Source: a virus
Strand: one strand, 5' to 3'
IMG/VR virus record: IMGVR_UViG_3300017963_007659
Location: 96,001-160,000 of that record
DNA: 64,000 bases
Positions within the stretch are counted from its first letter, which is position 1; each line of letters begins with the position of its first letter. The notes under the pieces are model-generated. The model had not been told where the DNA came from and did not search any database. It was given only the letters and a program-made list of their open reading frames with translations. Made by a program: the position numbers and the translations under genes. Shown one piece after another: positions 2,700 through 38,158 of this stretch.

Positions 2700-2703
2700 G
2701 AGA

Positions 2704-2928
2704 ATGGATAACGGAAGCATCACGACAACTTGCGGCGAGACCTTCTCATACAGAGATCACACTCGCCTAGCGAGATTGATTCACCTTCGCTTCGGAAAAG
2801 ACATTGAAGCCGGGGCAGCGGCTTGGAGGAGGCTGATGCAGAACAGCACGACAGATGATCAGTTCGAGATGCTGGTCAACATCGGCTATCTCCACGCTCT
2901 GGAAGACAAAGAAGGAGAGCCGTCATGA
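2704..2928 (+). CDS. Hypothetical early protein
   Basis: ORF behind the promoter cassette. Confidence 0.7.
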   Translation: MDNGSITTTCGETFSYRDHTRLARLIHLRFGKDIEAGAAAWRRLMQNSTTDDQFEMLVNIGYLHALEDKEGEPS

Positions 2929-3200
2929 CATCAATTTTTGACAAGCTGGACGAAGCCGCAGATAGCGCCAGGAGCCTCGGAGAATCCAACGAGAAGATGG
3001 CACGAGGCATTGAATACGCTAGCGATTGCGTGCGTTCCCGCTACAATGAGCTGTGCGCAGTGCTGAGAAAGGCGAAGAAGCGAGCAGAACGCGAACCTCT
3101 GGATGCTCAAGAGAGAGCCCAACAGACCGAAGACTACGGCGTTGTTCTCGGTCTCGAAATGGCTCTCAAGATCTTCGAGGAAGGGGAGAACCATGGATAA
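2925..3200 (+). CDS. Hypothetical protein
   Basis: ATGA overlap with the upstream gene, AGGAG RBS. Confidence 0.7.
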   Translation: MTSIFDKLDEAADSARSLGESNEKMARGIEYASDCVRSRYNELCAVLRKAKKRAEREPLDAQERAQQTEDYGVVLGLEMALKIFEEGENHG

Positions 3201-3399
3201 GACGCAGAAAGTTCAAGACCTTCTCCGTATGGCCAAGAGCACGAGCGGAAACGTGCACGAAGCTCACCTCGCTGCCAAGCGCGCCGTCGAGATTGCCCGT
3301 GAAAACGACCTCGGAGGTCATCTCGTAGCACGTTGCCTCGTTCTCCAAGGCAAGACCCAGCGGCGGCTGGACCGCAGCCAACTCCCCTCCTACGCCTGA
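3193..3399 (+). CDS. Small DUF2786-like protein
   Basis: QKVQDLLRMAKSTSGNVHEAHLAAKRA resembles the DUF2786 helical motif. Confidence 0.55.
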   Translation: MDKTQKVQDLLRMAKSTSGNVHEAHLAAKRAVEIARENDLGGHLVARCLVLQGKTQRRLDRSQLPSYA

Positions 3400-3623
3400 C
3401 GCTCTAGACGGACATCATCTTCGTCCAACAGTCCACTATACAAGACATACGGACGCCCTCTACAAGAAGCCATATCTCCCGTCAACGGGAGATGGCTCCA
3501 GGACCCTTTTCCTGTAGCAGCTTCAACCTCAGTCTCTGGAAGAAGCTCTTCCCCACATTCCGGACAGTAGGCTCTATACTCCGGAGTCACTACTGGTCGG
3601 AATCCTACGGCGAAGTGGCTCAT
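3390..3623 (-). CDS. Possible small Zn-ribbon protein
   Basis: YCPECGEEL motif; start uncertain. Confidence 0.4.
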   Translation of the reverse strand: MSHFAVGFRPVVTPEYRAYCPECGEELLPETEVEAATGKGSWSHLPLTGDMASCRGRPYVLYSGLLDEDDVRLERQA

Positions 3624-3675
3624 ACCAAACTTTGACCAGTTCGTCCGGAAGTTATCTATCTTTGAGGAGATCTCC

Positions 3676-4293
3676 ATGAAGCACCTTCCCGCTGTTCTCT
3701 CCAAGCTTGTCCTTGAAGGACACAGCGACCTCGCCACAGAGCTTCTCTCCTCATCCTCCTGTCCTCTCCGCACCAAAGCCTATGGAGGTCTCCCCTCGTC
3801 TGGAGGCTACGTAGCATGGACGGAGTACGAGATCGGGGCGCAGCGCATCGCTGAAGCCTCACACTGCATCCTCGGCTCCATGGGAGGGGACCACTGGTTT
3901 GAACCTGGTCATATCCGGGATGAGTTGGACCTGATTGAGAGGACCGTCGAAGAATACTCCAAGCGTCTCTACTCAGATCGCCTGCTCAACTACAACGATG
4001 ACGACATCGAATTCGTCGAAGGCTCCGTCAAGAGCATCGGTAAAGCCTCTCCCAAGCTCAGAGCACGAGCACAGAAGCTCAAAGCGGAGGTAGAGAGACA
4101 GGAAGACATCCCACAGAAGGTCAAGACAACAGCGCTCTTGACCTACGATGTCGTCATTGAACTCACGAACGCTATGGAGCACAGTGTACGGAGTTGGCCG
4201 AAGAAGATGGAGAACGCCTTCCAGAATCGCAAACTACGGCAATCAATACGGAACCTTAGACATGCTGTCGATGCTATGGTTCGAGACTCCTAG
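3676..4293 (+). CDS. Hypothetical protein, possibly virion-internal
   Basis: GAGGAG RBS; N-terminal LSKLVLEGHSDLATELL motif shared with structural-region proteins. Confidence 0.7.
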   Translation: MKHLPAVLSKLVLEGHSDLATELLSSSSCPLRTKAYGGLPSSGGYVAWTEYEIGAQRIAEASHCILGSMGGDHWFEPGHIRDELDLIERTVEEYSKRLYSDRLLNYNDDDIEFVEGSVKSIGKASPKLRARAQKLKAEVERQEDIPQKVKTTALLTYDVVIELTNAMEHSVRSWPKKMENAFQNRKLRQSIRNLRHAVDAMVRDS

Positions 4294-4748
4294 TCGTCAC
4301 TCTCTGTATCATCCGAAGCGGGGAAGTGCTTCTGGATGAAGTCCTCCGAGTAGCCGTCTTTCCTCAGATCAGCGACAACCGCTTCATGCTCCCGGAATCT
4401 ATCTCCGTTGTTGTCCACTCCCGTCTGAATTCCACTGTAGGTAGTATAGATACAGGAGATGGGCAAGCCTCCGCCATCGACAGTGAGGAAAGGGTCGATC
4501 AGGATAGCTGCATCGGGGCAGCAGCCACAGGACCGACGTCGAGATACTTGAAGACCCGGATGAGAGGTGATCTCCTTCGTGTAGAAGCGCTCATTCTTCC
4601 AGCGGTCTTCACCTCGCTGGAGGTTCGGATACGTCACAGCCAAGTCTCGTAGCTGCGCGAGCTTCAAGGTCGACTTCTCAATCGACGCCTCCAGGGAGAG
4701 GAGGTGCTTCTGGATCTCGCTCAGCTCTTCTTTCTGATCCTGTTTCAT
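4290..4748 (-). CDS. Hypothetical protein
   Basis: 152 aa ORF with coiled-coil N-terminus and SCGCCPD motif. Confidence 0.7.
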   Translation of the reverse strand: MKQDQKEELSEIQKHLLSLEASIEKSTLKLAQLRDLAVTYPNLQRGEDRWKNERFYTKEITSHPGLQVSRRRSCGCCPDAAILIDPFLTVDGGGLPISCIYTTYSGIQTGVDNNGDRFREHEAVVADLRKDGYSEDFIQKHFPASDDTESDD

Positions 4749-25838: not shown

Positions 25839-28800
25839 ATGCGATATCCGCAGTATCTTGCGTCGAACGAGTTGACTGCGCTCGGACGAAAGACTCTTCT
25901 GGACCGATACGCTCGCAAGGCACCGAAGACGGCACCCGTAGAGCTTGGAGACCTCGTCATCCTTTGCACAGACAAGGAGTCTGGACAGAGGGAGATTGGC
26001 AGCGTCATCGGAGTCAACAACGATGACCGGACCGTCAATATTCGCGCGGAAGATGGGGAAGAGTACACCGTCGATGTGGAGGAGGTAGACAAGCCTCTGG
26101 AGACGGATCCTCAAGATGTGGTCCAGCGTGTCGCTCGCGCCCTATCGAAGGTTGAGGAGAAGCCTCGTCGCTGGGAGAACATCTTCAAGAAGCTGATGGG
26201 CAACTGGAAGTTCGTTCCAGCTGGTCGCATTCTCACCGGAGCAGGTATCCAGCAAGAGACGCCGCTCACCTTCTTCAACTGCAACGTCATCCCAGCTCCC
26301 AAGGATAGCCGAGAAGGGATCATCGACACAGCAAAGATTCTCGCGGAGCTGTTCTCCCGTGGGGCTGGCGTCGGGACCTACCTCTCCTCTCTGCGTCCTC
26401 GCTTCGCCTACGTGAAGGGTGTCAACGGACGCTCTTCCGGGGCTGTGAGCTGGGGGTCTCTGTACTCGCATCTCACGGGGCTCATTGAGCAAGGAGGCTG
26501 CGTCACTGGAGAGACTCTTGTAGCTACGTCTAAGGGTGATTTTCCAATCAAGAATCTTGTAGGAACGACACCAGACGTCTATTCTTATGACTGCTCCACA
26601 GAAAGGACTGTGCTCAAAACAGCGAAGTGGGTGGGTAAGACCGGGGATAGTCAAAGAATCCTACGACTTACGACAACCCAGGGTCTTATTCTTGAAGCTA
26701 CTCCTGACCATCTCATCCTGTGTGCTGACAAAAAGTATCGTCCTCTACAAGAATTGGAGGTAGGGACGGCACTGAATGTCGAGAGTGCTTCTATCCACCA
26801 TGTCCAATCCGTAGAAGACTGTGGGGAAGAAGACGTTTACGATCTCGAAGTCCCTGATACTCACAATTTCTTTGTATTCTCGAAGGGTTGTAAAGAGGGT
26901 GTCTTCATACACAACTCCCGTCGCGGTGCCGCAATGCTCGTTCTACACGTCTGGCACCCGGATGTGTACGAGTTCATTGAGTGCAAGAGGGAGCCCAAAG
27001 CTAAGCAGCTCGCTCTCCTGGCTGACAAGCTCGAATACGGCTTTGGTCTCACGGAGTTCGCTCAAGAAGCCAGAGATCTCGCGGGGCAATGGCCAGCTCA
27101 CATCCAGCACGCCAATCTCTCGGTTGGAATCACAGACGATTTCATGGAAGCTGTTATTCACGATCGGGACTGGCAGCTCGTCTTTCCTGATACGACAGTT
27201 CCGGAGTACACAGAGAAGTGGGATGGGGACCTCAAGAAGTGGCAAGAGGAAGGTCATCCAATCAAAGTCCACAAGGTAGTCAAGGCGCGCGACCTGTGGA
27301 ACAAGCTCATGTACTCCGCGTGGGACTCGGCTGAGCCGGGAGTCATCTACATCGATACGGTCAACAGTGAGAGTACCTCATGGTGGTACTGCAACATGCT
27401 GGCGACGAACCCTTGCGGAGAGCAGCCTCTCCCGAGCTGGTACGGTGTCTGTAACCTTGGAGCAATCAATCTCCCTCGCTTCCTCATGGAGGATCCAGAC
27501 GACCCGAACAAAGTCATCCTTGACAAGGAAGCCTACAAGAATGCGATCCATGTCTCCATGCGCTTCCTGGACAACGTTATCGACACCACTCCCTACTTCT
27601 TCGATGAGCAAGAATACAATGCGAAGCGTGAGCGTCGAGTTGGCTTGAGTCCCTTCATGGGGCTTGCCGAAGCTCTGGTCATTCTTGGTATTCGCTATGG
27701 GTCTGAGGAGGCGGTAGACTTCGTGGAGGAGGCTGGCTTGGTCGCGGCTTCAGAGTCCCTCAGAGCCAGCGTGGACCTCGCAGAAGAGAAGGGCTGCTGT
27801 GATGTGTTGGCTACTCCAGAGGACCGGGAGAAGTTCTTGGAGAGTCTGTATGTGCAACGTATTCTCCGGTATCTGCCTCCAGAGGACAACCAGGACTTGC
27901 AGTCACGGATTCGTGAGCATGGAGCCAGGAACGTGAGCTTCACGACCTCAGCGCCTACCGGGACCATCGGGACCATGGTGGCAACGTCTACCGGAATCGA
28001 GCCCTTCTTTCGTTTCGAGTACCGCCAGAACACCAATCTCGGAACCCATATCAAACGAGAGCGTGTTCTGGATGAATGGTATAGGCAACACGGTGAGAGC
28101 GCTGCTGTTCCGGATTACTTCGTGAGCGCTGGGGAGCTGACTCCAAAAGAGCACCTCGTCATGACTGCTGCGCTCCAGCGGTGGATTGACTCAGGTATCA
28201 GTAAGACCTACAACCTACCACAGGAGTATACACCAGAGGACATCGGAAAGATCTACATGGAGATCTGGAAACGTCGATGTAAGGGAGGCACGGTCTTCCG
28301 TGAAGGGTCTCGTACCGTTCAGGTTCTTGAGAGTCTCGACCCCAAGGAGAAGAAGACGTTCGAGATGAGCTTCCCGGAGAAGACTCCTGGACCGCCGAAG
28401 GGGGACAAGAAAGATGGTTCCACGTGGTCCATCGACTCTCCCTCTGGTACCCTGCACGCTACGTTCAATCAGTATCCGACGCCAGACAACCCCTTCGAGA
28501 CATTCCTGAGAATTGGGAAGGCAGGCTCTGATGTTGGAGCTATGACCGAAGCTTTCGGACGTGTCATCTCCCTCTTCCTCCAGATGAGAGGTCCAATCCG
28601 GCCCACAAGACGCTGTGAGCTTCTTGTCGAGCAGCTTGAGGGGATCGGTGGTCGAGACCAGGTTGGCTTCGGTCCAAATAAGATTCGTTCGATCCCTGAT
28701 GCGATTGCTAAGTCGATAAGTCGACATTTGCAGTCAATAGTAGGTAGGGACGATGACTTGTCATGCTCAGAAGATGAAGAAGAGAAACCAGCTTCAACTC

Positions 28801-28895
28801 ATGGCTTGGATATGTGTCCCGAGTGTGGTAATCTCGGATTGCGGTCGGAGGAAGGGTGCACGAGCTGCGCCTTCTGCGGCTATAGCAAATGCTGA
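25839..28895 (+). CDS. nrdJ: Class II (B12-dependent) ribonucleotide reductase with mini-intein and C-terminal Zn ribbon
   Basis: FVPAGRIL, FFNCNV, SRRGAAM, ATNPCGEQPL, CNLGAINL, RRVGL, SAPTGTIG, CPECG...CAFCGYSKC; single chain with no small subunit nearby. Confidence 0.95.
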   Translation: MRYPQYLASNELTALGRKTLLDRYARKAPKTAPVELGDLVILCTDKESGQREIGSVIGVNNDDRTVNIRAEDGEEYTVDVEEVDKPLETDPQDVVQRVARALSKVEEKPRRWENIFKKLMGNWKFVPAGRILTGAGIQQETPLTFFNCNVIPAPKDSREGIIDTAKILAELFSRGAGVGTYLSSLRPRFAYVKGVNGRSSGAVSWGSLYSHLTGLIEQGGCVTGETLVATSKGDFPIKNLVGTTPDVYSYDCSTERTVLKTAKWVGKTGDSQRILRLTTTQGLILEATPDHLILCADKKYRPLQELEVGTALNVESASIHHVQSVEDCGEEDVYDLEVPDTHNFFVFSKGCKEGVFIHNSRRGAAMLVLHVWHPDVYEFIECKREPKAKQLALLADKLEYGFGLTEFAQEARDLAGQWPAHIQHANLSVGITDDFMEAVIHDRDWQLVFPDTTVPEYTEKWDGDLKKWQEEGHPIKVHKVVKARDLWNKLMYSAWDSAEPGVIYIDTVNSESTSWWYCNMLATNPCGEQPLPSWYGVCNLGAINLPRFLMEDPDDPNKVILDKEAYKNAIHVSMRFLDNVIDTTPYFFDEQEYNAKRERRVGLSPFMGLAEALVILGIRYGSEEAVDFVEEAGLVAASESLRASVDLAEEKGCCDVLATPEDREKFLESLYVQRILRYLPPEDNQDLQSRIREHGARNVSFTTSAPTGTIGTMVATSTGIEPFFRFEYRQNTNLGTHIKRERVLDEWYRQHGESAAVPDYFVSAGELTPKEHLVMTAALQRWIDSGISKTYNLPQEYTPEDIGKIYMEIWKRRCKGGTVFREGSRTVQVLESLDPKEKKTFEMSFPEKTPGPPKGDKKDGSTWSIDSPSGTLHATFNQYPTPDNPFETFLRIGKAGSDVGAMTEAFGRVISLFLQMRGPIRPTRRCELLVEQLEGIGGRDQVGFGPNKIRSIPDAIAKSISRHLQSIVGRDDDLSCSEDEEEKPASTHGLDMCPECGNLGLRSEEGCTSCAFCGYSKC
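26499..26915 (+). mobile_element. Mini-intein (139 aa, no homing endonuclease) in nrdJ
   Basis: QGG|CVTGETLV...ATPDH...DVYDLEVPDTHNF...FIHN|SRRGA. Confidence 0.95.
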
Positions 28896-30561: not shown

Positions 30562-31743
30562 ATGAAGGTTTATCGCTCGACACGCTGTACCTTGAAGTAC
30601 ACCAATCCACACAAGCTGGACATCTTGTCTGAGATTATAGACGAGTACGGCAGGGTGGTGCGGTTGTACATCGACTTGTTCTGGGAAAAGTCGCGATACC
30701 TTCATAATAATGACCTCTTGAAGCCTGTCATCGAATCAATCCCTCCGACGTGGCTGGGATATAAATTCAAAAGGGACGCGGCTCGTGAGGCTCTGCGAAA
30801 CATCCGGTCTATAACGAATAGACCAGGGACGCCACAAAAGAAGCCGAACTATAAAGGGCGGTCAATGACTCTCCATTTTGACACCGCCTATCTGACGGAC
30901 TCCAAAAAGACAGATTCTTTTGACGCCTGGTTTAGATTGCGTGGAGTTGGGAAGTATTCGGATACAGGAGAGGGGATATGCATCGCTTTTCCTATAAAAT
31001 TCCACAAGCATTTCAATCAATTGAGCGCCAAAGGAAGGCGCGTCAATACTATCCATGTCTATCGGGACTCAGTACAATTCATCTTTGAACTTGAGACCGG
31101 GGAGAAGAGGACCAAGGGCAAGCAGGTCGGAGTCTACACAAATGGGGAGACTCTTGCCACTATCTCCGATGGCACGAAGTACGGTACGGACATCGGACGC
31201 TATGTCGATCGTGTACAAAGATGCGTGCCTGGGTCAAAGGGCCACAGGAAGGCGCAGCGAGCGCTCAAACAGCGTCTGAATGAAGTAGTCAAAGAAATTG
31301 GGCGTAAGCATGTCAAGCTCTTTGTGCTTGAGCGTGCCAAACCCAAGAAGGATGCGATAGGCGGACGTTGCTCGCCAGAAAACAAGCAACGATCTCTCGG
31401 TATCTGGGCATACACCTACTGGTTGGAGAGGTTTCATAGAGAGTGTGAGATGAGACGTTCTCGCTTTCGCTCTACCGCTCCTGTATATACCAAGACGTGT
31501 TGTTCAGCATGTGGAAGTACCGAGAGGAGTAATCTGTCCGGTGAAACGTTCCTGTGTACCACATGTGGTCATAGGAGCAAAGCAGCAGTGAACGTTGCTC
31601 AAAACACTTTGGACAGGTATCTCTCTGGACCCTACGGTGCCAGATTCAAACCCGGACGCTCTGGAAAACGAGGTCAGGGAACGGTATTTGTACAATCGCC
31701 TATCTCTCAAAAACAGGGATCGACGAAAGGACTACAAGAATGA
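30562..31743 (+). CDS. tnpB: TnpB-derived protein with inactivated RuvC (TldR-like, nuclease-dead)
   Basis: TnpB architecture; RuvC-I GVYTNG (D to Y), RuvC-II FVLE kept, Zn finger CSAC...CTTC intact, RuvC-III KAAVNVAQN (D to A); no tnpA. Confidence 0.85.
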   Translation: MKVYRSTRCTLKYTNPHKLDILSEIIDEYGRVVRLYIDLFWEKSRYLHNNDLLKPVIESIPPTWLGYKFKRDAAREALRNIRSITNRPGTPQKKPNYKGRSMTLHFDTAYLTDSKKTDSFDAWFRLRGVGKYSDTGEGICIAFPIKFHKHFNQLSAKGRRVNTIHVYRDSVQFIFELETGEKRTKGKQVGVYTNGETLATISDGTKYGTDIGRYVDRVQRCVPGSKGHRKAQRALKQRLNEVVKEIGRKHVKLFVLERAKPKKDAIGGRCSPENKQRSLGIWAYTYWLERFHRECEMRRSRFRSTAPVYTKTCCSACGSTERSNLSGETFLCTTCGHRSKAAVNVAQNTLDRYLSGPYGARFKPGRSGKRGQGTVFVQSPISQKQGSTKGLQE

Positions 31744-32143: not shown

Positions 32144-33160
32144 ATGGTTGCTACCAAACCACCGGACTACATCTACAAGGATATTCCCCGATCCACCGCT
32201 GAAGCTGTTCAGAACAACGCCTATGAGGAGTCCCTCGTCCTCGTCAAGTCCGCCATCCAGCACTACCTTAATCAGTTTTTCGATTCAGATGGGAAGTATC
32301 GAAGACTTGTAGAGTCTGTGTGCCCAACTGTAGGACAATTCGTTACAGACGTTCGTGTCCCTCGGCCTGGAGAATACGAAGACCCAACAAAGTACAAAAT
32401 TCAGATCGCTCGGATGTGGCAAGGTCTCAAGCAGCGTCTTCCTTGCATCGTCATTGCGGAGACTGGCTGGACTCGTCAGAACTCTCTGAGTGACATCTCG
32501 GGTGGTATCTCCGTGCCGGGGACCGATGGGCTCCAGCACTCTCCGTTGTGGCTCAGCAACTTCCTCATGGGGAGCATCGATATTCTTGTAGGGGCGTTGG
32601 ATGAACATACGACAGGGCAGATAACTTCCCAACTTATCAATATCTTTGGGCCTTTGAAGGAGTTCACCAAAGAGACAATCTTGAAGCCGACGACACCTAC
32701 AGGTGGGTCAACCTGGGAAGTTCGGCTTCCGATGAATCAAACCATCAGCTCCAGAGAGCGAATCAACATCGGAGATGACCCTGTCTCGTCGCTGTGGTCG
32801 GCTACGCTGTCCTTGGATGACGTCCACTTCGAGGGGTCAACACCTCTCGATATGGAGGCTGCTGTTCCGACGGAGCCCGATTATGGTCCGAATACCCCTG
32901 TAGACAGCGATGACTTCCCTGACACCACAATCGTTGTTTCCTCTCCGGTTAAGTTGGGGAGAGCCCAACCATTCCGTGTAGTTAACGAACGCTACAGCGC
33001 CGTCATCTACAGCGACAATCCCCGTGTGGCACTGATACGGGGCTACACCATCATCCCTAGGAAAGTTGGTACATTTAATATAGTCGTGGCTAATGGTAAT
33101 AGTGTTGGTCTTGAGGCCGACATCTTTGCAAAGCAAGAGGTGTCTGTGGCACTTATATAG
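32144..33160 (+). CDS. Virion structural protein (neck/tail-completion-like) with Ig-like C-terminus; last 30 codons supplied by the TnpB element
   Basis: Position upstream of the sheath, LPCIVIAETG, beta-rich C-terminus, GGTTATT motif upstream. Confidence 0.6.
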   Translation: MVATKPPDYIYKDIPRSTAEAVQNNAYEESLVLVKSAIQHYLNQFFDSDGKYRRLVESVCPTVGQFVTDVRVPRPGEYEDPTKYKIQIARMWQGLKQRLPCIVIAETGWTRQNSLSDISGGISVPGTDGLQHSPLWLSNFLMGSIDILVGALDEHTTGQITSQLINIFGPLKEFTKETILKPTTPTGGSTWEVRLPMNQTISSRERINIGDDPVSSLWSATLSLDDVHFEGSTPLDMEAAVPTEPDYGPNTPVDSDDFPDTTIVVSSPVKLGRAQPFRVVNERYSAVIYSDNPRVALIRGYTIIPRKVGTFNIVVANGNSVGLEADIFAKQEVSVALI

Positions 33161-34402
33161 CTCAGAGAGGGTTAGATAGCTAGTAGGCGCATAGAGCAGC
33201 AATCACATAGAAATTTAATGTTTGTGGCACATAAAATAGCGTTATCTCCTACCCCAGATCAGGAGACGTACTTCAGGAAAGCAGCAGGTACAGCGCGCTT
33301 CGCTTATAATTGGGCTTTAGACCAATGGGTATCTCTTTACCGATTGGGAGAAAAGCCAAGTGAAGCTATGATCCGAAAAAACTTAAACAAGATCAAGTAT
33401 ATTGAATTCCCTTGGATGAAAGACGTTTCAAAAACGGTACCACAACAATCGATTAAAAATCTGGGAAAGGCTTTCAACAACTTTTTCAATAAGCGTGCTA
33501 AATACCCGAAATATAAGAAACTTGGGAGGCATGACGCATTCCGTGCGGATAATGGTCCTCAAACTAAAGGAGCCGATGCGGTCCAGGTTAATGGAAAATC
33601 AGTCGGCATACCAAAACTCGGCTGGGTACGAATGCGAGAAGCGCTTCGTTTTGAAGGCCAAATAAAGTCCGCTACGATCTCACGAAGAGCCCAGCGGTGG
33701 TACATCAGTTTTTTGGTTGATAGCCCGCTTTGCTCCTTCCAGCGCGAAAACCAAGCAGTTGGAGGAGTAGACCTTGGTCTTCGTTGGATGGCTGTTACAA
33801 GCGATGGTGTCTTCTATGAGAATCCGAAGCCGCTGAAAGCTAACTTGAGGAAGCTTAAGAGACTACAGCGACAACTTCGCAACAAGAAGAAGGGGTCGAA
33901 CAGACGGACGCGACTCCAACATCGGATCGCGGAGCTTCATGTGAGAATCGCTGATATCAGAAAAGATGCTCTGCATAAGGCGACGACATCCTTGGTTAGA
34001 GATTACTCTACAATTGTTATCGAAGACCTAAATGTAGTGGGGATGCTGAAGAATCGTTATCTCTCCAGAGCTGTCTCGGATGTGGGATTGTACGAATTCC
34101 GTCGTCAACTTGAGTACAAAGCGAAGTGGTATGGGACAAAAGTCCTCTTAGCAGATCGTTGGTTCCCTTCCAGCAAACTCTGTTCGTGTTGTGGCTATAA
34201 GTACTCAGAACTAAAGCTTGGAATGGAATCGTGGGTGTGTCCTGTCTGTAAGACAGAGCATGATAGAGACCGGAACGCAGCTATCAATCTACGGGAAGTT
34301 CTCCCGGAAGTTACGCACGTGGAGACCACGTCCTCTACTTCTCTAGCTGGACTAGAGAAGCAAGGCAGGTCGATGAAGCGTGAACTTGTTGAAAGAGAAC
34401 GG
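33068..34402 (+). mobile_element. Transposase-less IS607-type TnpB element carrying a recoded 3' end of its target gene
   Basis: Bounded by GG at 33068-69 and 34401-02; 33068-33160 and 34401-34493 encode the same 30-aa C-terminus (25/30 identical). Confidence 0.85.
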
Positions 34403-34411
34403 TACTTTTAA
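33218..34411 (+). CDS. tnpB: RNA-guided endonuclease TnpB, catalytically intact
   Basis: HTH AHKIALSPT...GTARFAYNWAL; RuvC GGVDLG, IVIEDLNV, HDRDRNAAINL; Zn finger CSCC...CPVC. Confidence 0.97.
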   Translation: MFVAHKIALSPTPDQETYFRKAAGTARFAYNWALDQWVSLYRLGEKPSEAMIRKNLNKIKYIEFPWMKDVSKTVPQQSIKNLGKAFNNFFNKRAKYPKYKKLGRHDAFRADNGPQTKGADAVQVNGKSVGIPKLGWVRMREALRFEGQIKSATISRRAQRWYISFLVDSPLCSFQRENQAVGGVDLGLRWMAVTSDGVFYENPKPLKANLRKLKRLQRQLRNKKKGSNRRTRLQHRIAELHVRIADIRKDALHKATTSLVRDYSTIVIEDLNVVGMLKNRYLSRAVSDVGLYEFRRQLEYKAKWYGTKVLLADRWFPSSKLCSCCGYKYSELKLGMESWVCPVCKTEHDRDRNAAINLREVLPEVTHVETTSSTSLAGLEKQGRSMKRELVERERYF

Positions 34412-34422
34412 CATAGTGGTTG
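34290..34422 (+). ncRNA. Predicted TnpB omegaRNA (scaffold 3' part + guide)
   Basis: Hairpins CGGGA/TCCCG, ACGTGG/CCACGT, CTTCTCTAG/CTAGAGAAG and GTCGATGAAGC overlapping the tnpB 3' end; guide predicted from about 34403; boundaries approximate. Confidence 0.6.
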
Positions 34423-34493
34423 CTGATGGCAACTCCACAGGGCTCGAAGCTAGAATTTTTGCAACTCAGGAAGTCTCTGTATCTCTCATATGA
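34401..34493 (+). pseudogene. Displaced original 3' end of gene 32144-33160
   Basis: Reads GTFNIVVADGNSTGLEARIFATQEVSVSLI-stop, with no start codon or RBS. Confidence 0.9.
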
Positions 34494-34597
34494 TCTGGTC
34501 GCACGGATGCGTCTTATAAAGACGACCTCTCTAGAGCGAGGTTATCTTTAGACGATATCGATGAAATTGACCAAATAAGAACGGAGCGTTCAGAACC

Positions 34598-37500
34598 ATG
34601 GCTGACGTCTTAGTCACATCACAATATGTGCTCCCAGGTTCGTACCTAGGAAGAATCTACACACCCAACGCCGGAACGCTGTCGGGCGACCCAAGACAAC
34701 CCTGTTACGTTGGGAAGGGTAGTCGACTTGCGACCGCAGCGAACGTTCCGATCCGCCGTGCGTTTTTGCAGGGAGAGGTCATCCCCTTCCCGCAGACGGT
34801 GCCGCACTTGGTAACTCTTGCGCACCCATCGGATGGCGACCAGACGTTGGCAACGATGACTACACAGTCGGGGGCTGTCATTCCAGCCTCGAAGTGGCAG
34901 TTCCAGAAGTCCGCTCCCGGTATCACAGGATACGACCAAATTCTGCTGTTGCCGGAAGCCTTCAACTCCACCTCGACCTACACTCTCGACTACCAGACCA
35001 TCGACCGAGATGTTGTCGATGATGTCCCGTTTGACGAGATGCGTCAAATGGTTAGAGTAGGCGACTACCAGGACCAGGATTTCTACTCCGAGCAGGTGGA
35101 CTACCGCGTTATCACCTCCAATACGGATCCAGTTCCGGACCCGACGGTGGCGAACGCGACGACTACGCTGTTCACTCCTGTTCAGCAGACGGCTACGGGT
35201 GGTGGTGCTCCGACTCCGACGGTCAATGTTGGTGCCACCTACACAGGGCAGCACAACAGGCACTATCGCTTTGAGGCGGTTGGGCTCGCACCGCTGACCT
35301 TCTTGGTGGACATCACCAACGAGGGTGGCGGCAACAACCTGACTCCGGACTATCCGGTAGGTCCGAACATCAGCGGGCTGACCTTCCCGGTCGCTATCGC
35401 GGGTGCTTACGACCTCGACTCTCAGATGGGGCTCACCTCTCTTGGTGTGCTAGTCGACCTCGACCCGGCTGACCCTGGTGTCTGGGCTGTTGGTGACGTT
35501 TTTGAGTTCAACGCGCTTGGACCGTCCGTCATCGAATTGGACCCAACCTACGACAACACCAACCAGTTCTCTTCGGTTTCTGCCCTCACAGCAGCGGCTG
35601 GAAATGGTGGAACTGGTACAGTGACACTGAACCCCAATACGGACTTCACGGGATCGACGAACAAAGATGTGCGCATCGAATGTGCCTCCTTTGCTGGTCT
35701 GTCTCCGAACCGAACCGCTCTCTTCGATTGGCAGACCTACGGGGCTGATGCGATTGAGAAGGGATCGATTCTTGTAGATGAGTCTGTCGCGGGGAACCTG
35801 ATCAACCGAACGGTAGCCGATGGAATCTCTGTCGACTTCGACTTCGGCACGGATGCTGGTGGAAACAGCGCGAACTTCGTTTTTGCGGCTGGTATCATCA
35901 CCTTCGATGCGGGTACAGGTACCTTCACTCCTAGCATGGTTGGTCGGCAGATCACCATCGTTGGAGCCACTACCCCTGCGAATGATGGTACCTTCGTCAT
36001 CGCTTCCTATATCTCTCCAACACAAATCACCTACGCCAACGCTCTTGGTGTAACCGAGGTTGGAGCAGGTACCTGGGTTGTGGAAGGTTTCTTCGTTCCG
36101 ACCTCAGCGACGACACAGGGCGACCTCTTCACGACGGCTGCTACTGCCCCCATGCTCTATTACACGGGTAAGGACGACCGAGAGTACACTCTGGAGGTCA
36201 CAGCAGCTACGTCTACTCCGTTCACCGCAGTGACTGGTGTTGCGATTGCTCCAACGAATACGTTCGACGTCGCAACGGATCTCACGACAGCCATCGCGCT
36301 TCATCCGAACATTCGGGTCGAAGGTTCGACGGGCAACGACAATCTCTATACGGTCCAGTCCACCTCCTACGATTCTGGAACGGACACCACGACTATCACC
36401 ACAGTCGAGAACGTCCCGAATGCCGTAGCAGATGGAAACCTCTGGTACGGAACAGGCGCAGCGTCCATCTTCTGGTCGACAGCTACTCCTGAAGGTGGTT
36501 TCGGTACCCTTTCTCTGTTGGATAACGACACGGCTTCACCGCTCGCCGATGAGATCAAGTTCTATGTCCGAAACTCTGGAAATCCGCTGCTTCGCTCGGA
36601 TGCTCAGAATCAGAGAAACGTCATCGCAGACGTCTGGACCTTCACGGTTACGAATGAGGATGAGATCTCTTGGACGCTCGCAGCGCGCGAGACGGAGACC
36701 ATCGCTGTAGCGGACCTTCGACAAGATACCACGGGTTCCATCACAGGAGCTTCTGGTGGCGTTCCTGGCACGCGTTACCTCATCCTTGAGCAAACTCCTA
36801 CGATCCAGCCTCTTCGAGTGTGGACGACCAACCCGACGACCAGTGTCACCACTGAGCTGACGGTTGCAACGACACCTCCCTATGTCGCTGGTTCGGACGC
36901 CTACTGGATCACCGGGACACCGTACATCTTCTTCCCGACGACTCCGACTGAGCCTGTCTCGGTCACCTACCAGCACAGAGCGTTGGAGCCGGATCCTGGA
37001 CAGGTCTACTACATCACGTCGTACTACCTGCGACCCCTCAACTTCTACAACAACCCGATTCGGTTGCTGAACGAAGACGAGGCGATCTCGGTTCTCGGTC
37101 CCATGGACCCCGAGAACGACCTTCTCATCATGGCTCTCGTTGCCCTGGTGGACTGCAACGCCTTCGCTGTTTGGGTCACGCAGGTTCGAGACACAGACGA
37201 TGACGGTGTGTATACCACATACGACTACAACACGGCTATTGAAGCCACAGAGCTGAATGACCAACTCACGGACATCACAGTTCTACAGAACTTCGATTCG
37301 CTGTCCAAGCTGAAGACGTCTGTCATCCAGATGAACGACCCCTTCGAGCGGAAGCAGCGTCTGTGCTGGGTTGGAGCCCCCATTGGGACAGAGATTGGCG
37401 ATACCGACACTCCGGACACTTTGGTCTACTTGGCCAAGAGAACGCTCCAGGTGTACGGTGAGAGCCCCGCGCACGGTGCCTTCATTCTTGTAGGCAACAC

Positions 37501-38158
37501 GGTGTGTGAGCGCACCATTGAGCTGGCTGAAGGGACTCAGACCACTGTCACCCTTGACGGAAGCTTCGTGGCGGGTGCTGCGGCTGCTCTTGTCGCCTCC
37601 TACACTGATCCTGGTGAGACCATTCTCCGAAAGGACCAGCCAGGGTTCGACCGTATCGGTGGAACGACCATCGATATTCAGTACGAGGAGAAGGAACTCA
37701 AGCTGCTTGGTGCGGCGGGTGCAAGTACCTTGAATGAGGTTGGCTCCGGTATCTACCAGTGGGTTGAGGACATCACCGTAGACACATTCGCCCAAGATAC
37801 TCAGCAGATCAACGCGATGACCCAGAAGCAATTCGTCGAGCGTTACGTCCGAAGTCGGATGGACACCTCGATTACGGGTATCGTGGCTCCGTCTGCTCAG
37901 GCGGGTGTCGCCATCGTCAAGGGCTTCCTGGTTGAGCTGCTTCGCTCACTGGCAAGTCGGGGTATCATCGGTGCGTGGACGGATGACTCTGGGAATGAGC
38001 GAGACATCGATCCTCAGAACGATGTTGAAGTATTCCGGGATGATACGGACCGAACGTTGTACCACTACAAGTTCTGGTTCAACATTCGGTACCCAATCAA
38101 GCGGACCTTCGGTCTCTACTCCGTCGACTCTCGTTCCTTCACACCGCTCGCTGCCTAG
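34598..38158 (+). CDS. Contractile tail sheath protein with large inserted domains
   Basis: N-terminal QYVLPGSYLGR; C-terminal sheath domain FVAGAAAALVAS, VKGFLVELLRSLASRGII, FWFNIRYPIKR. Confidence 0.88.
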   Translation: MADVLVTSQYVLPGSYLGRIYTPNAGTLSGDPRQPCYVGKGSRLATAANVPIRRAFLQGEVIPFPQTVPHLVTLAHPSDGDQTLATMTTQSGAVIPASKWQFQKSAPGITGYDQILLLPEAFNSTSTYTLDYQTIDRDVVDDVPFDEMRQMVRVGDYQDQDFYSEQVDYRVITSNTDPVPDPTVANATTTLFTPVQQTATGGGAPTPTVNVGATYTGQHNRHYRFEAVGLAPLTFLVDITNEGGGNNLTPDYPVGPNISGLTFPVAIAGAYDLDSQMGLTSLGVLVDLDPADPGVWAVGDVFEFNALGPSVIELDPTYDNTNQFSSVSALTAAAGNGGTGTVTLNPNTDFTGSTNKDVRIECASFAGLSPNRTALFDWQTYGADAIEKGSILVDESVAGNLINRTVADGISVDFDFGTDAGGNSANFVFAAGIITFDAGTGTFTPSMVGRQITIVGATTPANDGTFVIASYISPTQITYANALGVTEVGAGTWVVEGFFVPTSATTQGDLFTTAATAPMLYYTGKDDREYTLEVTAATSTPFTAVTGVAIAPTNTFDVATDLTTAIALHPNIRVEGSTGNDNLYTVQSTSYDSGTDTTTITTVENVPNAVADGNLWYGTGAASIFWSTATPEGGFGTLSLLDNDTASPLADEIKFYVRNSGNPLLRSDAQNQRNVIADVWTFTVTNEDEISWTLAARETETIAVADLRQDTTGSITGASGGVPGTRYLILEQTPTIQPLRVWTTNPTTSVTTELTVATTPPYVAGSDAYWITGTPYIFFPTTPTEPVSVTYQHRALEPDPGQVYYITSYYLRPLNFYNNPIRLLNEDEAISVLGPMDPENDLLIMALVALVDCNAFAVWVTQVRDTDDDGVYTTYDYNTAIEATELNDQLTDITVLQNFDSLSKLKTSVIQMNDPFERKQRLCWVGAPIGTEIGDTDTPDTLVYLAKRTLQVYGESPAHGAFILVGNTVCERTIELAEGTQTTVTLDGSFVAGAAAALVASYTDPGETILRKDQPGFDRIGGTTIDIQYEEKELKLLGAAGASTLNEVGSGIYQWVEDITVDTFAQDTQQINAMTQKQFVERYVRSRMDTSITGIVAPSAQAGVAIVKGFLVELLRSLASRGIIGAWTDDSGNERDIDPQNDVEVFRDDTDRTLYHYKFWFNIRYPIKRTFGLYSVDSRSFTPLAA

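Follow-up and report, generated by a model that had tools for sequence, protein, structure and literature searches.

The closest described relatives of the system presented here are the TnpB proteins of CboIStron (PMC10690162) and the ISFba1 TnpB/RAGATH-18 system (PMC11061315, PDB 8IAZ), which belong to a clade whose nearest members lie behind a serine-recombinase tnpA. It is established that the guides of IS607 elements derive from the flank 3' of the right end (PMC10690162). The TAM of CboTnpB is TGGG, in which G at -3 is read most strictly, while the transposase strictly needs only GG (PMC10690162). AGGAG and GAGGG have also been measured as IS607 TAMs, and in ISFba1 TnpB residue N121 contacts the G-rich TAM at -3/-4; single mismatches at guide positions 1-13 abolish or strongly impair cutting by this protein (PMC11061315). 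Gene conversion stimulated by TnpB cleavage is known (PMC10690162, PMC11870625), as are intronless homing and the killing of competitors by phage endonucleases (PMC13565253, PMC11620839).

The window, a stretch of 64,000 nucleotides that forms part of a virus record of 186 kb from a large uncultured phage, contains a tnpB gene of this clade between two structural genes. It is probable, with some reservation, that this immobilised, transposase-less IS607 derivative serves as a free-standing nuclease, guided by RNA, for homing or against competitors. The locus consists of the following features.

32144-33160, + strand: intact tail-terminator/neck-like gene (open reading frame, 338 aa), the last 30 codons of which are copy 1
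33064-33069, + strand: the carrier's 5' context of the guide-like site, ending in TTGG with T at -3, a predicted non-TAM
33070-33160, + strand: copy 1, the apparently working, diverged gene tail
33164-33171, + strand: IS607 target motif that ends in GAGGG and abuts the true left end on its 5' side, the best predictor of the TAM
33172-33180, + strand: IS607 left-end remnant, with tnpA deleted
33218-34411, + strand: tnpB of the IS607 clade (397 aa)
34290-34402, + strand: shortened omegaRNA scaffold of 113 nt, found with a covariance model and ending in the IS607 right end GAACGG
34403-34422, + strand: predicted guide, 20 nt long and beginning right after the right end
34403-34493, + strand: copy 2, the terminator gene's apparently displaced 3' end, with reading frame and stop codon preserved
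34494-34597, + strand: native terminator-to-sheath intergenic region
34598-38158, + strand: tail sheath gene (1186 aa), the right homology arm

As in CboIStron and ISFba1, the right end terminates in CGG, the scaffold overlaps the 3' end of tnpB, the guide comes from the 3' flank and the context of the left end is G-rich. Unlike these elements, the one in the window has no tnpA in the record, a left end of about 9 nt, a shortened right end and no intron, and its scarless excision would not create a guide target. In other aspects the locus is reminiscent of intronless homing by SegF and Mob in phage T4 (PMC13565253): a nuclease gene lies between conserved genes, its product is predicted to cleave the adjacent gene in related phages, the carrier allele is predicted to be resistant, and flanking sequence would be co-converted. 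Here, however, specificity would come from an RNA templated by a retained duplicate gene end instead of protein-DNA readout. The proposed bias of inheritance by cutting element-free copies resembles the IS605 TnpB gene drive in plasmids (PMC11870625) and restorative homing (PMC10690162), but the target lies in a phage and inside a probably essential gene that is kept whole by a second gene end. PhiPA3 gp210 (PMC11620839) is likewise a homing nuclease of a large phage, one that can be turned against a related phage in the same cell. It is an HNH protein encoded in an intron, whereas the window nuclease is RNA-guided and intron-free. In the open literature, a scope that leaves most subscription journals aside, no description of this layout was found.

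The 338-aa protein has no match in Pfam, NCBIfam or PHROG. Its AlphaFold model (pLDDT 89.6) is matched by Foldseek to the neck/terminator proteins of phage 812, T4 (gp15), Pa193 and T5 (p142), with E values of 1e-5 to 1e-4 and low TM scores. In the model, residues 309-317 and 327-336 form two strands of a C-terminal beta domain and fall within the last 30 residues, which makes it probable that cutting the gene short at the GG would be harmful. Precisely these last 30 codons are present twice, as copy 1 (33068-33160 including the GG) and copy 2 (34401-34493 including the GG). The two share 25 of 30 residues with the stop codon in register, and are 67% identical over 91 nt (E 1.9e-5 in a comparison of the genome with itself); the duplication of the gene end is not due to chance. 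From a GTG within the omegaRNA, a reading frame stays open to the end of copy 2 (34380-34493, + strand), and a 37-aa peptide is formally possible from it.

Which of the two is the original end can be read from relatives. Four of these (L081, L084, L085 and L086) are free of tnpB and have a terminator protein that is 70-80% identical, followed directly by the sheath gene, the product of which in the window shows ESM Atlas feature matches to PF04984/PF17482 clusters at 0.95. In all four, some 100-130 nt containing the conserved motif GGTTATC separate the stop codon from the sheath gene, as behind copy 2, where the intergenic region has the same length and carries the motif at 34540-34546. Moreover, three AT-rich empty alleles are nearer to copy 2 (63-69 of 87 nt) than to copy 1 (49-57 of 87 nt). 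Because of this shared downstream region and this greater proximity, copy 2 is to be regarded, as far as sequence comparison goes, as the displaced original gene end and copy 1 as a working substitute. No tnpB occurs in any of the neck-gene loci examined and, as is characteristic of homing endonucleases, the nuclease gene is optional between conserved genes, being missing from the four relatives. Upstream in the window (25839-28895, + strand) lies a Class II-type ribonucleotide reductase gene with a short intein; in the same gene of L084 the intein has an HNH match.

The 397-aa TnpB matches profile NF040570 above the cut-off and NF038280 below its cut-off. Its RuvC residues D185, E269 and D351 are all present, which rules out that it is a TldR, a nuclease-dead TnpB repressor, and its zinc finger is intact as well. 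The closest relatives, about 50-57% identical, are encoded by IS607 elements with a serine-recombinase tnpA, and the window protein sits on a long branch of 0.57 substitutions per site in a FastTree phylogeny. A second, divergent TnpB homologue of 393 aa is encoded 1.5 kb upstream (30562-31743, + strand); it has kept the zinc finger while the RuvC-I and RuvC-III aspartates are replaced, and is a candidate TldR-like protein.

An earlier note on this DNA had placed the left junction at 33069/70. The duplicated gene end begins there, and the left end of the IS lies instead at 33172, 11 nt behind the stop codon of copy 1 and directly after GAGGG. The segment 33168-33180 occurs once in the genome and is identical at 13 of 13 positions to the left end of L179, an IS607 derivative that still has a start fragment of tnpA; it resembles the left ends of L176, L063 and L001 too. 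The similarity to relatives stops after 9 nt, and in the 46 nt between the left end and the tnpB ATG no 3' remnant of tnpA could be shown. A resolvase gene (PF00239) is absent from the record, which CheckV estimates to be 50% complete. On the other side, alignments of near-identical IS pairs at different sites end right after GA(A/G)CGG, which sets the right-end boundary and corresponds to GAACGG at 34397-34402 in the window. The right-end subterminal segment is reduced from about 42 model positions before the terminus to 5 nt.

The element thus has a right end in GG and a left end after a G-rich target, as expected for IS607, but not the intact subterminal ends (about 40 bp on the left and 60 bp on the right) that CboIStron needs for excision. 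Furthermore, its flanks do not add up to a single empty site, since post-stop DNA lies on the left and mid-gene coding DNA on the right. The element (33172-34402) can therefore be described from its sequence as a transposase-less IS607 derivative that has lost tnpA and the subterminal end sequences, and it stands outside the intact IS607 and IStron families with respect to tnpA, ends, intron and continuity of the flanks. A search of 33000-34700 against Rfam gives no family match, hence neither an intron nor a curated omegaRNA; a Group B IStron was rejected for this reason and because there is no room for a group I intron. In a distant relative (L087:1067-1082) the terminator stop codon is followed by AGAGGG, the ribosome-binding site of the next gene. 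The left end in the window is preceded by AGAGGG too, and such a ribosome-binding site may be where the IS first inserted.

The omegaRNA itself is conserved. A covariance model built from 13 IS607 relatives, with the window sequence excluded, matches 34290-34402 with 58.8 bits (E 1.2e-14), the next match in the window having an E value of 0.45. The stems of the family covary in the model-fitted alignment, and a long-range pairing of 34316-34320 with 34378-34382 in the model is accompanied by two compensatory changes in the window; folding of the locus alone gives z values of -1.2 and -1.7, which is weak evidence. All strings and coordinates of the earlier note are exact, including the 11-mer at 34369 and the GG dinucleotides at 34401-02 and 33068-69, and the inverted repeats of its three hairpins are all present. 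The first (34292-34306) and third (34338-34360) are part of the conserved fold; the second (34317-34331) is a real repeat, but it competes with the long-range stem and probably lies outside that fold. With the scaffold ending at 34402, the guide is predicted to start at 34403, as proposed before, and thus at the start of copy 2.

TTGG had been proposed because the TAM was read where the duplicated gene end begins. This applies the left-end rule at the wrong place, the true left end following GAGGG. All 17 related insertion sites read GGG at their end when the boundary is set behind the run of Gs. The boundary could sit one G earlier, and for this reason the flanks were rejoined and the reading frames checked. 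At five loci (L098, L171, L175, L176 and L254) the target must comprise the full run of Gs; L001 and L092 fit one G fewer, with GGG still left, while L094 and L063 are weak cases that would permit T or A at -3. The left junctions of L001 and L092 seem one G longer than the reconstructed empty site, unlike those of L171, L175 and L176. All seven well-resolved empty sites have G at -3. In addition, N112 of the window protein aligns with N121 of ISFba1 TnpB, given an inferred numbering offset of three residues, and its TAM-contact loop and segments are the same as in GGG-inserting relatives. Since related elements insert after GGG and the TAM equals the sequence 5' of the left end, a GGG-type TAM is favoured with moderate confidence, and TTGG or a relaxed motif is a rather doubtful choice.

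This bears on a different view of the locus, in which the TAM is TTGG (or a relaxed D-G-G), the uninvaded gene with that context is targeted and immunity resides only in the guide mismatches. The strict need of IS607 TnpA for GG only speaks for it, as do the TTGG context in two of the four close empty alleles (L081 and L084), the boundary ambiguity of one G in L001, L092, L094 and L063, among which L094 could be an ATGG site, and the long TnpB branch, which may reflect a TAM shift relative to the relatives. Nevertheless this view is unlikely: the left end at 33172 follows GAGGG or AGAGG, neither of which is TTGG, G stands at -3 in all well-resolved sites of relatives, the TAM-contact segments are those of GGG-inserting proteins, and no IS607 TAM characterised in PMC10690162 or PMC11061315 has T at -3.

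The only other match to the guide in the 186-kb genome is 33070-33089 in copy 1, with four mismatches at positions 4, 10, 16 and 19, as had been noted; positions 4 and 10 are within the first 13. Under a GGG-type TAM the carrier site likely lacks a TAM, having T at -3, as well as being mismatched in the seed. The Val codon GTT of the carrier would remove the TAM at copy 1, and C at -3 would protect the guide template, copy 2, itself. Carrier immunity is plausible under either TAM. The two seed mismatches speak for the claim that the occupied allele is protected, the missing TAM likely contributing as well, and the claim that recoding provides the protection is overstated: copy 1 differs from the guide at four positions and natural alleles differ at two to six. 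In a synonymous comparison of the two tails 7 of 24 codons are identical, marginally below natural pairs (P 0.02-0.28, depending on the baseline). Designed recoding of copy 1 was rejected as unproven, the divergence being within or near the range of natural alleles.

The base composition of the tails adds a further element. GC3 falls from 0.58 in the gene body to 0.33 in each tail; in copy 1 it amounts to 10 of 30 where 17.5 are expected, from about the GG onwards, and the change lies at the GG or slightly upstream of it (z -2.9 and -2.7). Since 6 of 103 gene tails are equally low the signal is modest, while in relatives the GC3 of tail and gene body agree. It is no more than suggestive of a joint arrival, as expected from homing with co-conversion, in which an AT-richer donor supplied the tail together with tnpB and copy 2. 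The change point also fits a crossover right at the GG, a point in favour of a TTGG TAM; the shift leaves donor and recipient undistinguished as the source of TTGG. Sliding identity between gene body and sheath gives no clear lineage switch.

That the target is the uninvaded gene, as first suggested, agrees with the identity of the guide to the gene end that tnpB-free relatives keep in place; against this, no empty allele with a perfect guide match was found, each having a mismatch at position 10 or elsewhere in the seed. With 67-70% nucleotide identity the known empty alleles are distant ones, and they are mismatched to the guide at 2-6 positions. L085 and L086 have GGG at the guide-like site, and L081 and L084 have the TTGG context of the carrier; if a GGG-type TAM is assumed, TAM-bearing alleles thus exist in the lineage. 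Protein and pattern scans, INPHARED, cluster look-ups and identical-protein contigs yielded no close empty allele. The identical-protein contigs all have the same occupied layout, and every assembly of the phage seen carries the cassette. Eight exact 17-mers of GGG plus guide occur in viral contigs, all of them chance matches in two unrelated sequences. The true target would be an allele of a closer sibling phage that is not among the known ones.

It could be imagined that the locus is an inert relic, that is, what is left of an IS607 element together with the scar of a recombination between two phage lineages, with a nuclease that has no current target and a guide position that is a by-product of GG-core recombination. 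The missing perfect target, the shortened omegaRNA and a synonymous divergence of the tails near that of natural alleles are in line with this, but the combined reading is improbable. The 397-aa frame is intact with all catalytic residues, the scaffold has compensatory changes, and the signals of the guide RNA are kept while those for transposition are lost. Untranslated copy 2 has neither stops nor indels, which indicates recent function or renewal by recombination, and the layout recurs independently.

This recurrence is found among the fetched tnpB loci. Five independent viral cases have a piece of the flanking gene duplicated near the guide position (L010, L026, L028, L064/L066/L071 and L072/73/75/78), as against 1 of 70 testable cellular loci, and that one (L181) is the same prophage as L010. 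The duplication starts exactly at guide +1 in L010, L066 and L072. L010, a Thermoactinomyces prophage, encodes an IS605-type TnpB and has a duplicated exonuclease gene end (L010:3889 and L010:5175); related elements insert after TTTAT, and the resident gene copy has TGTAT and one mismatch. It also has an apparent left-end-like hairpin at the end of the tail, and appears to represent the same arrangement as the window in a different TnpB clade. Diverged duplicates at or near the guide position are likewise present in L066 (3542 and 5191), L072 (3761 and 5206), L026 and L028, and the resident copy of L072 keeps TTAC, with five mismatches in the first 14 nt. Two further arrangements were observed in passing. 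Behind one IS607 element on a 254-kb contig lie two tandem omegaRNAs (L253:3586-3728 and L253:3892-4031), each with its own right end and guide. In L102/L008, around 2700-4300, an IS607-type tnpB without tnpA lies inside a jumbo-phage tRNA cluster and the sequence after the omegaRNA looks tRNA-like; this phage (same contig as L255) has a distant terminator homologue.

A role without cleavage has also been considered, in which TnpB-omegaRNA modulates transcription by binding to the terminator gene or the late operon of the phage itself, or in which copy 2 is translated from the GTG at 34380. In favour of such a role, the genome holds a single partial match, that to the phage's own gene, and a RuvC-dead TnpB lies 1.5 kb upstream. 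However, it is very improbable, given the intact RuvC triad, an own site with two seed mismatches and without the predicted TAM, and the lack of a group I intron or other Rfam match.

We return to a nuclease directed at other phages. What the sequence offers in its support is an intact TnpB, a conserved omegaRNA, a guide that corresponds to the displaced gene end, alleles free of tnpB and the loss of the parts for transposition; expression, cutting, spread and an origin by re-joining of the right end at the GG are what we infer. In this scheme, TnpB-omegaRNA would cut co-infecting sibling phages with an uninterrupted terminator gene, at a guide match behind a G-rich TAM, likeliest GGG at -3 to -1 (for example a Val GTG or Thr ACG codon before Gly). 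Repair off the carrier would copy in tail, tnpB and omegaRNA, or the rival phage would simply be damaged, while the carrier would be spared twice, by T at TAM position -3 and by seed mismatches 4 and 10. As to the origin, the IS may at first have been a harmless insertion in one allele, 11 nt past the stop codon, its right end being joined later, at the GG, to the gene of another lineage, either by GG-core recombination or by a crossover between two IS copies. Re-joining at the GG would give a guide in exact register without designed recoding.

In a wider perspective, the chances are about even that phages repeatedly turn immobilised IS607/IS605 TnpB into RNA-guided homing endonucleases aimed inside essential genes, as a cleave-and-rescue drive. 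The displaced gene end would be kept as guide template and homology arm, a borrowed allele without TAM or seed match would keep the gene working, and the guide would be captured by re-joining the IS right end at the GG with the left end elsewhere. At similar loci, it is the left-end remnant of the IS, and not the point where the duplicated gene piece begins, that shows where to read the TAM. The two proposed layers of self-immunity can be told apart at this locus by pairing each TAM (GGG-type or TTGG) with each version of the tail (copy 1 and copy 2). If active, the system would join intronless homing by free-standing phage endonucleases with RNA-guided TnpB drive, its guide being re-targeted by moving the right end alone, and would account for the persistence of transposase-less tnpB genes in large phages.
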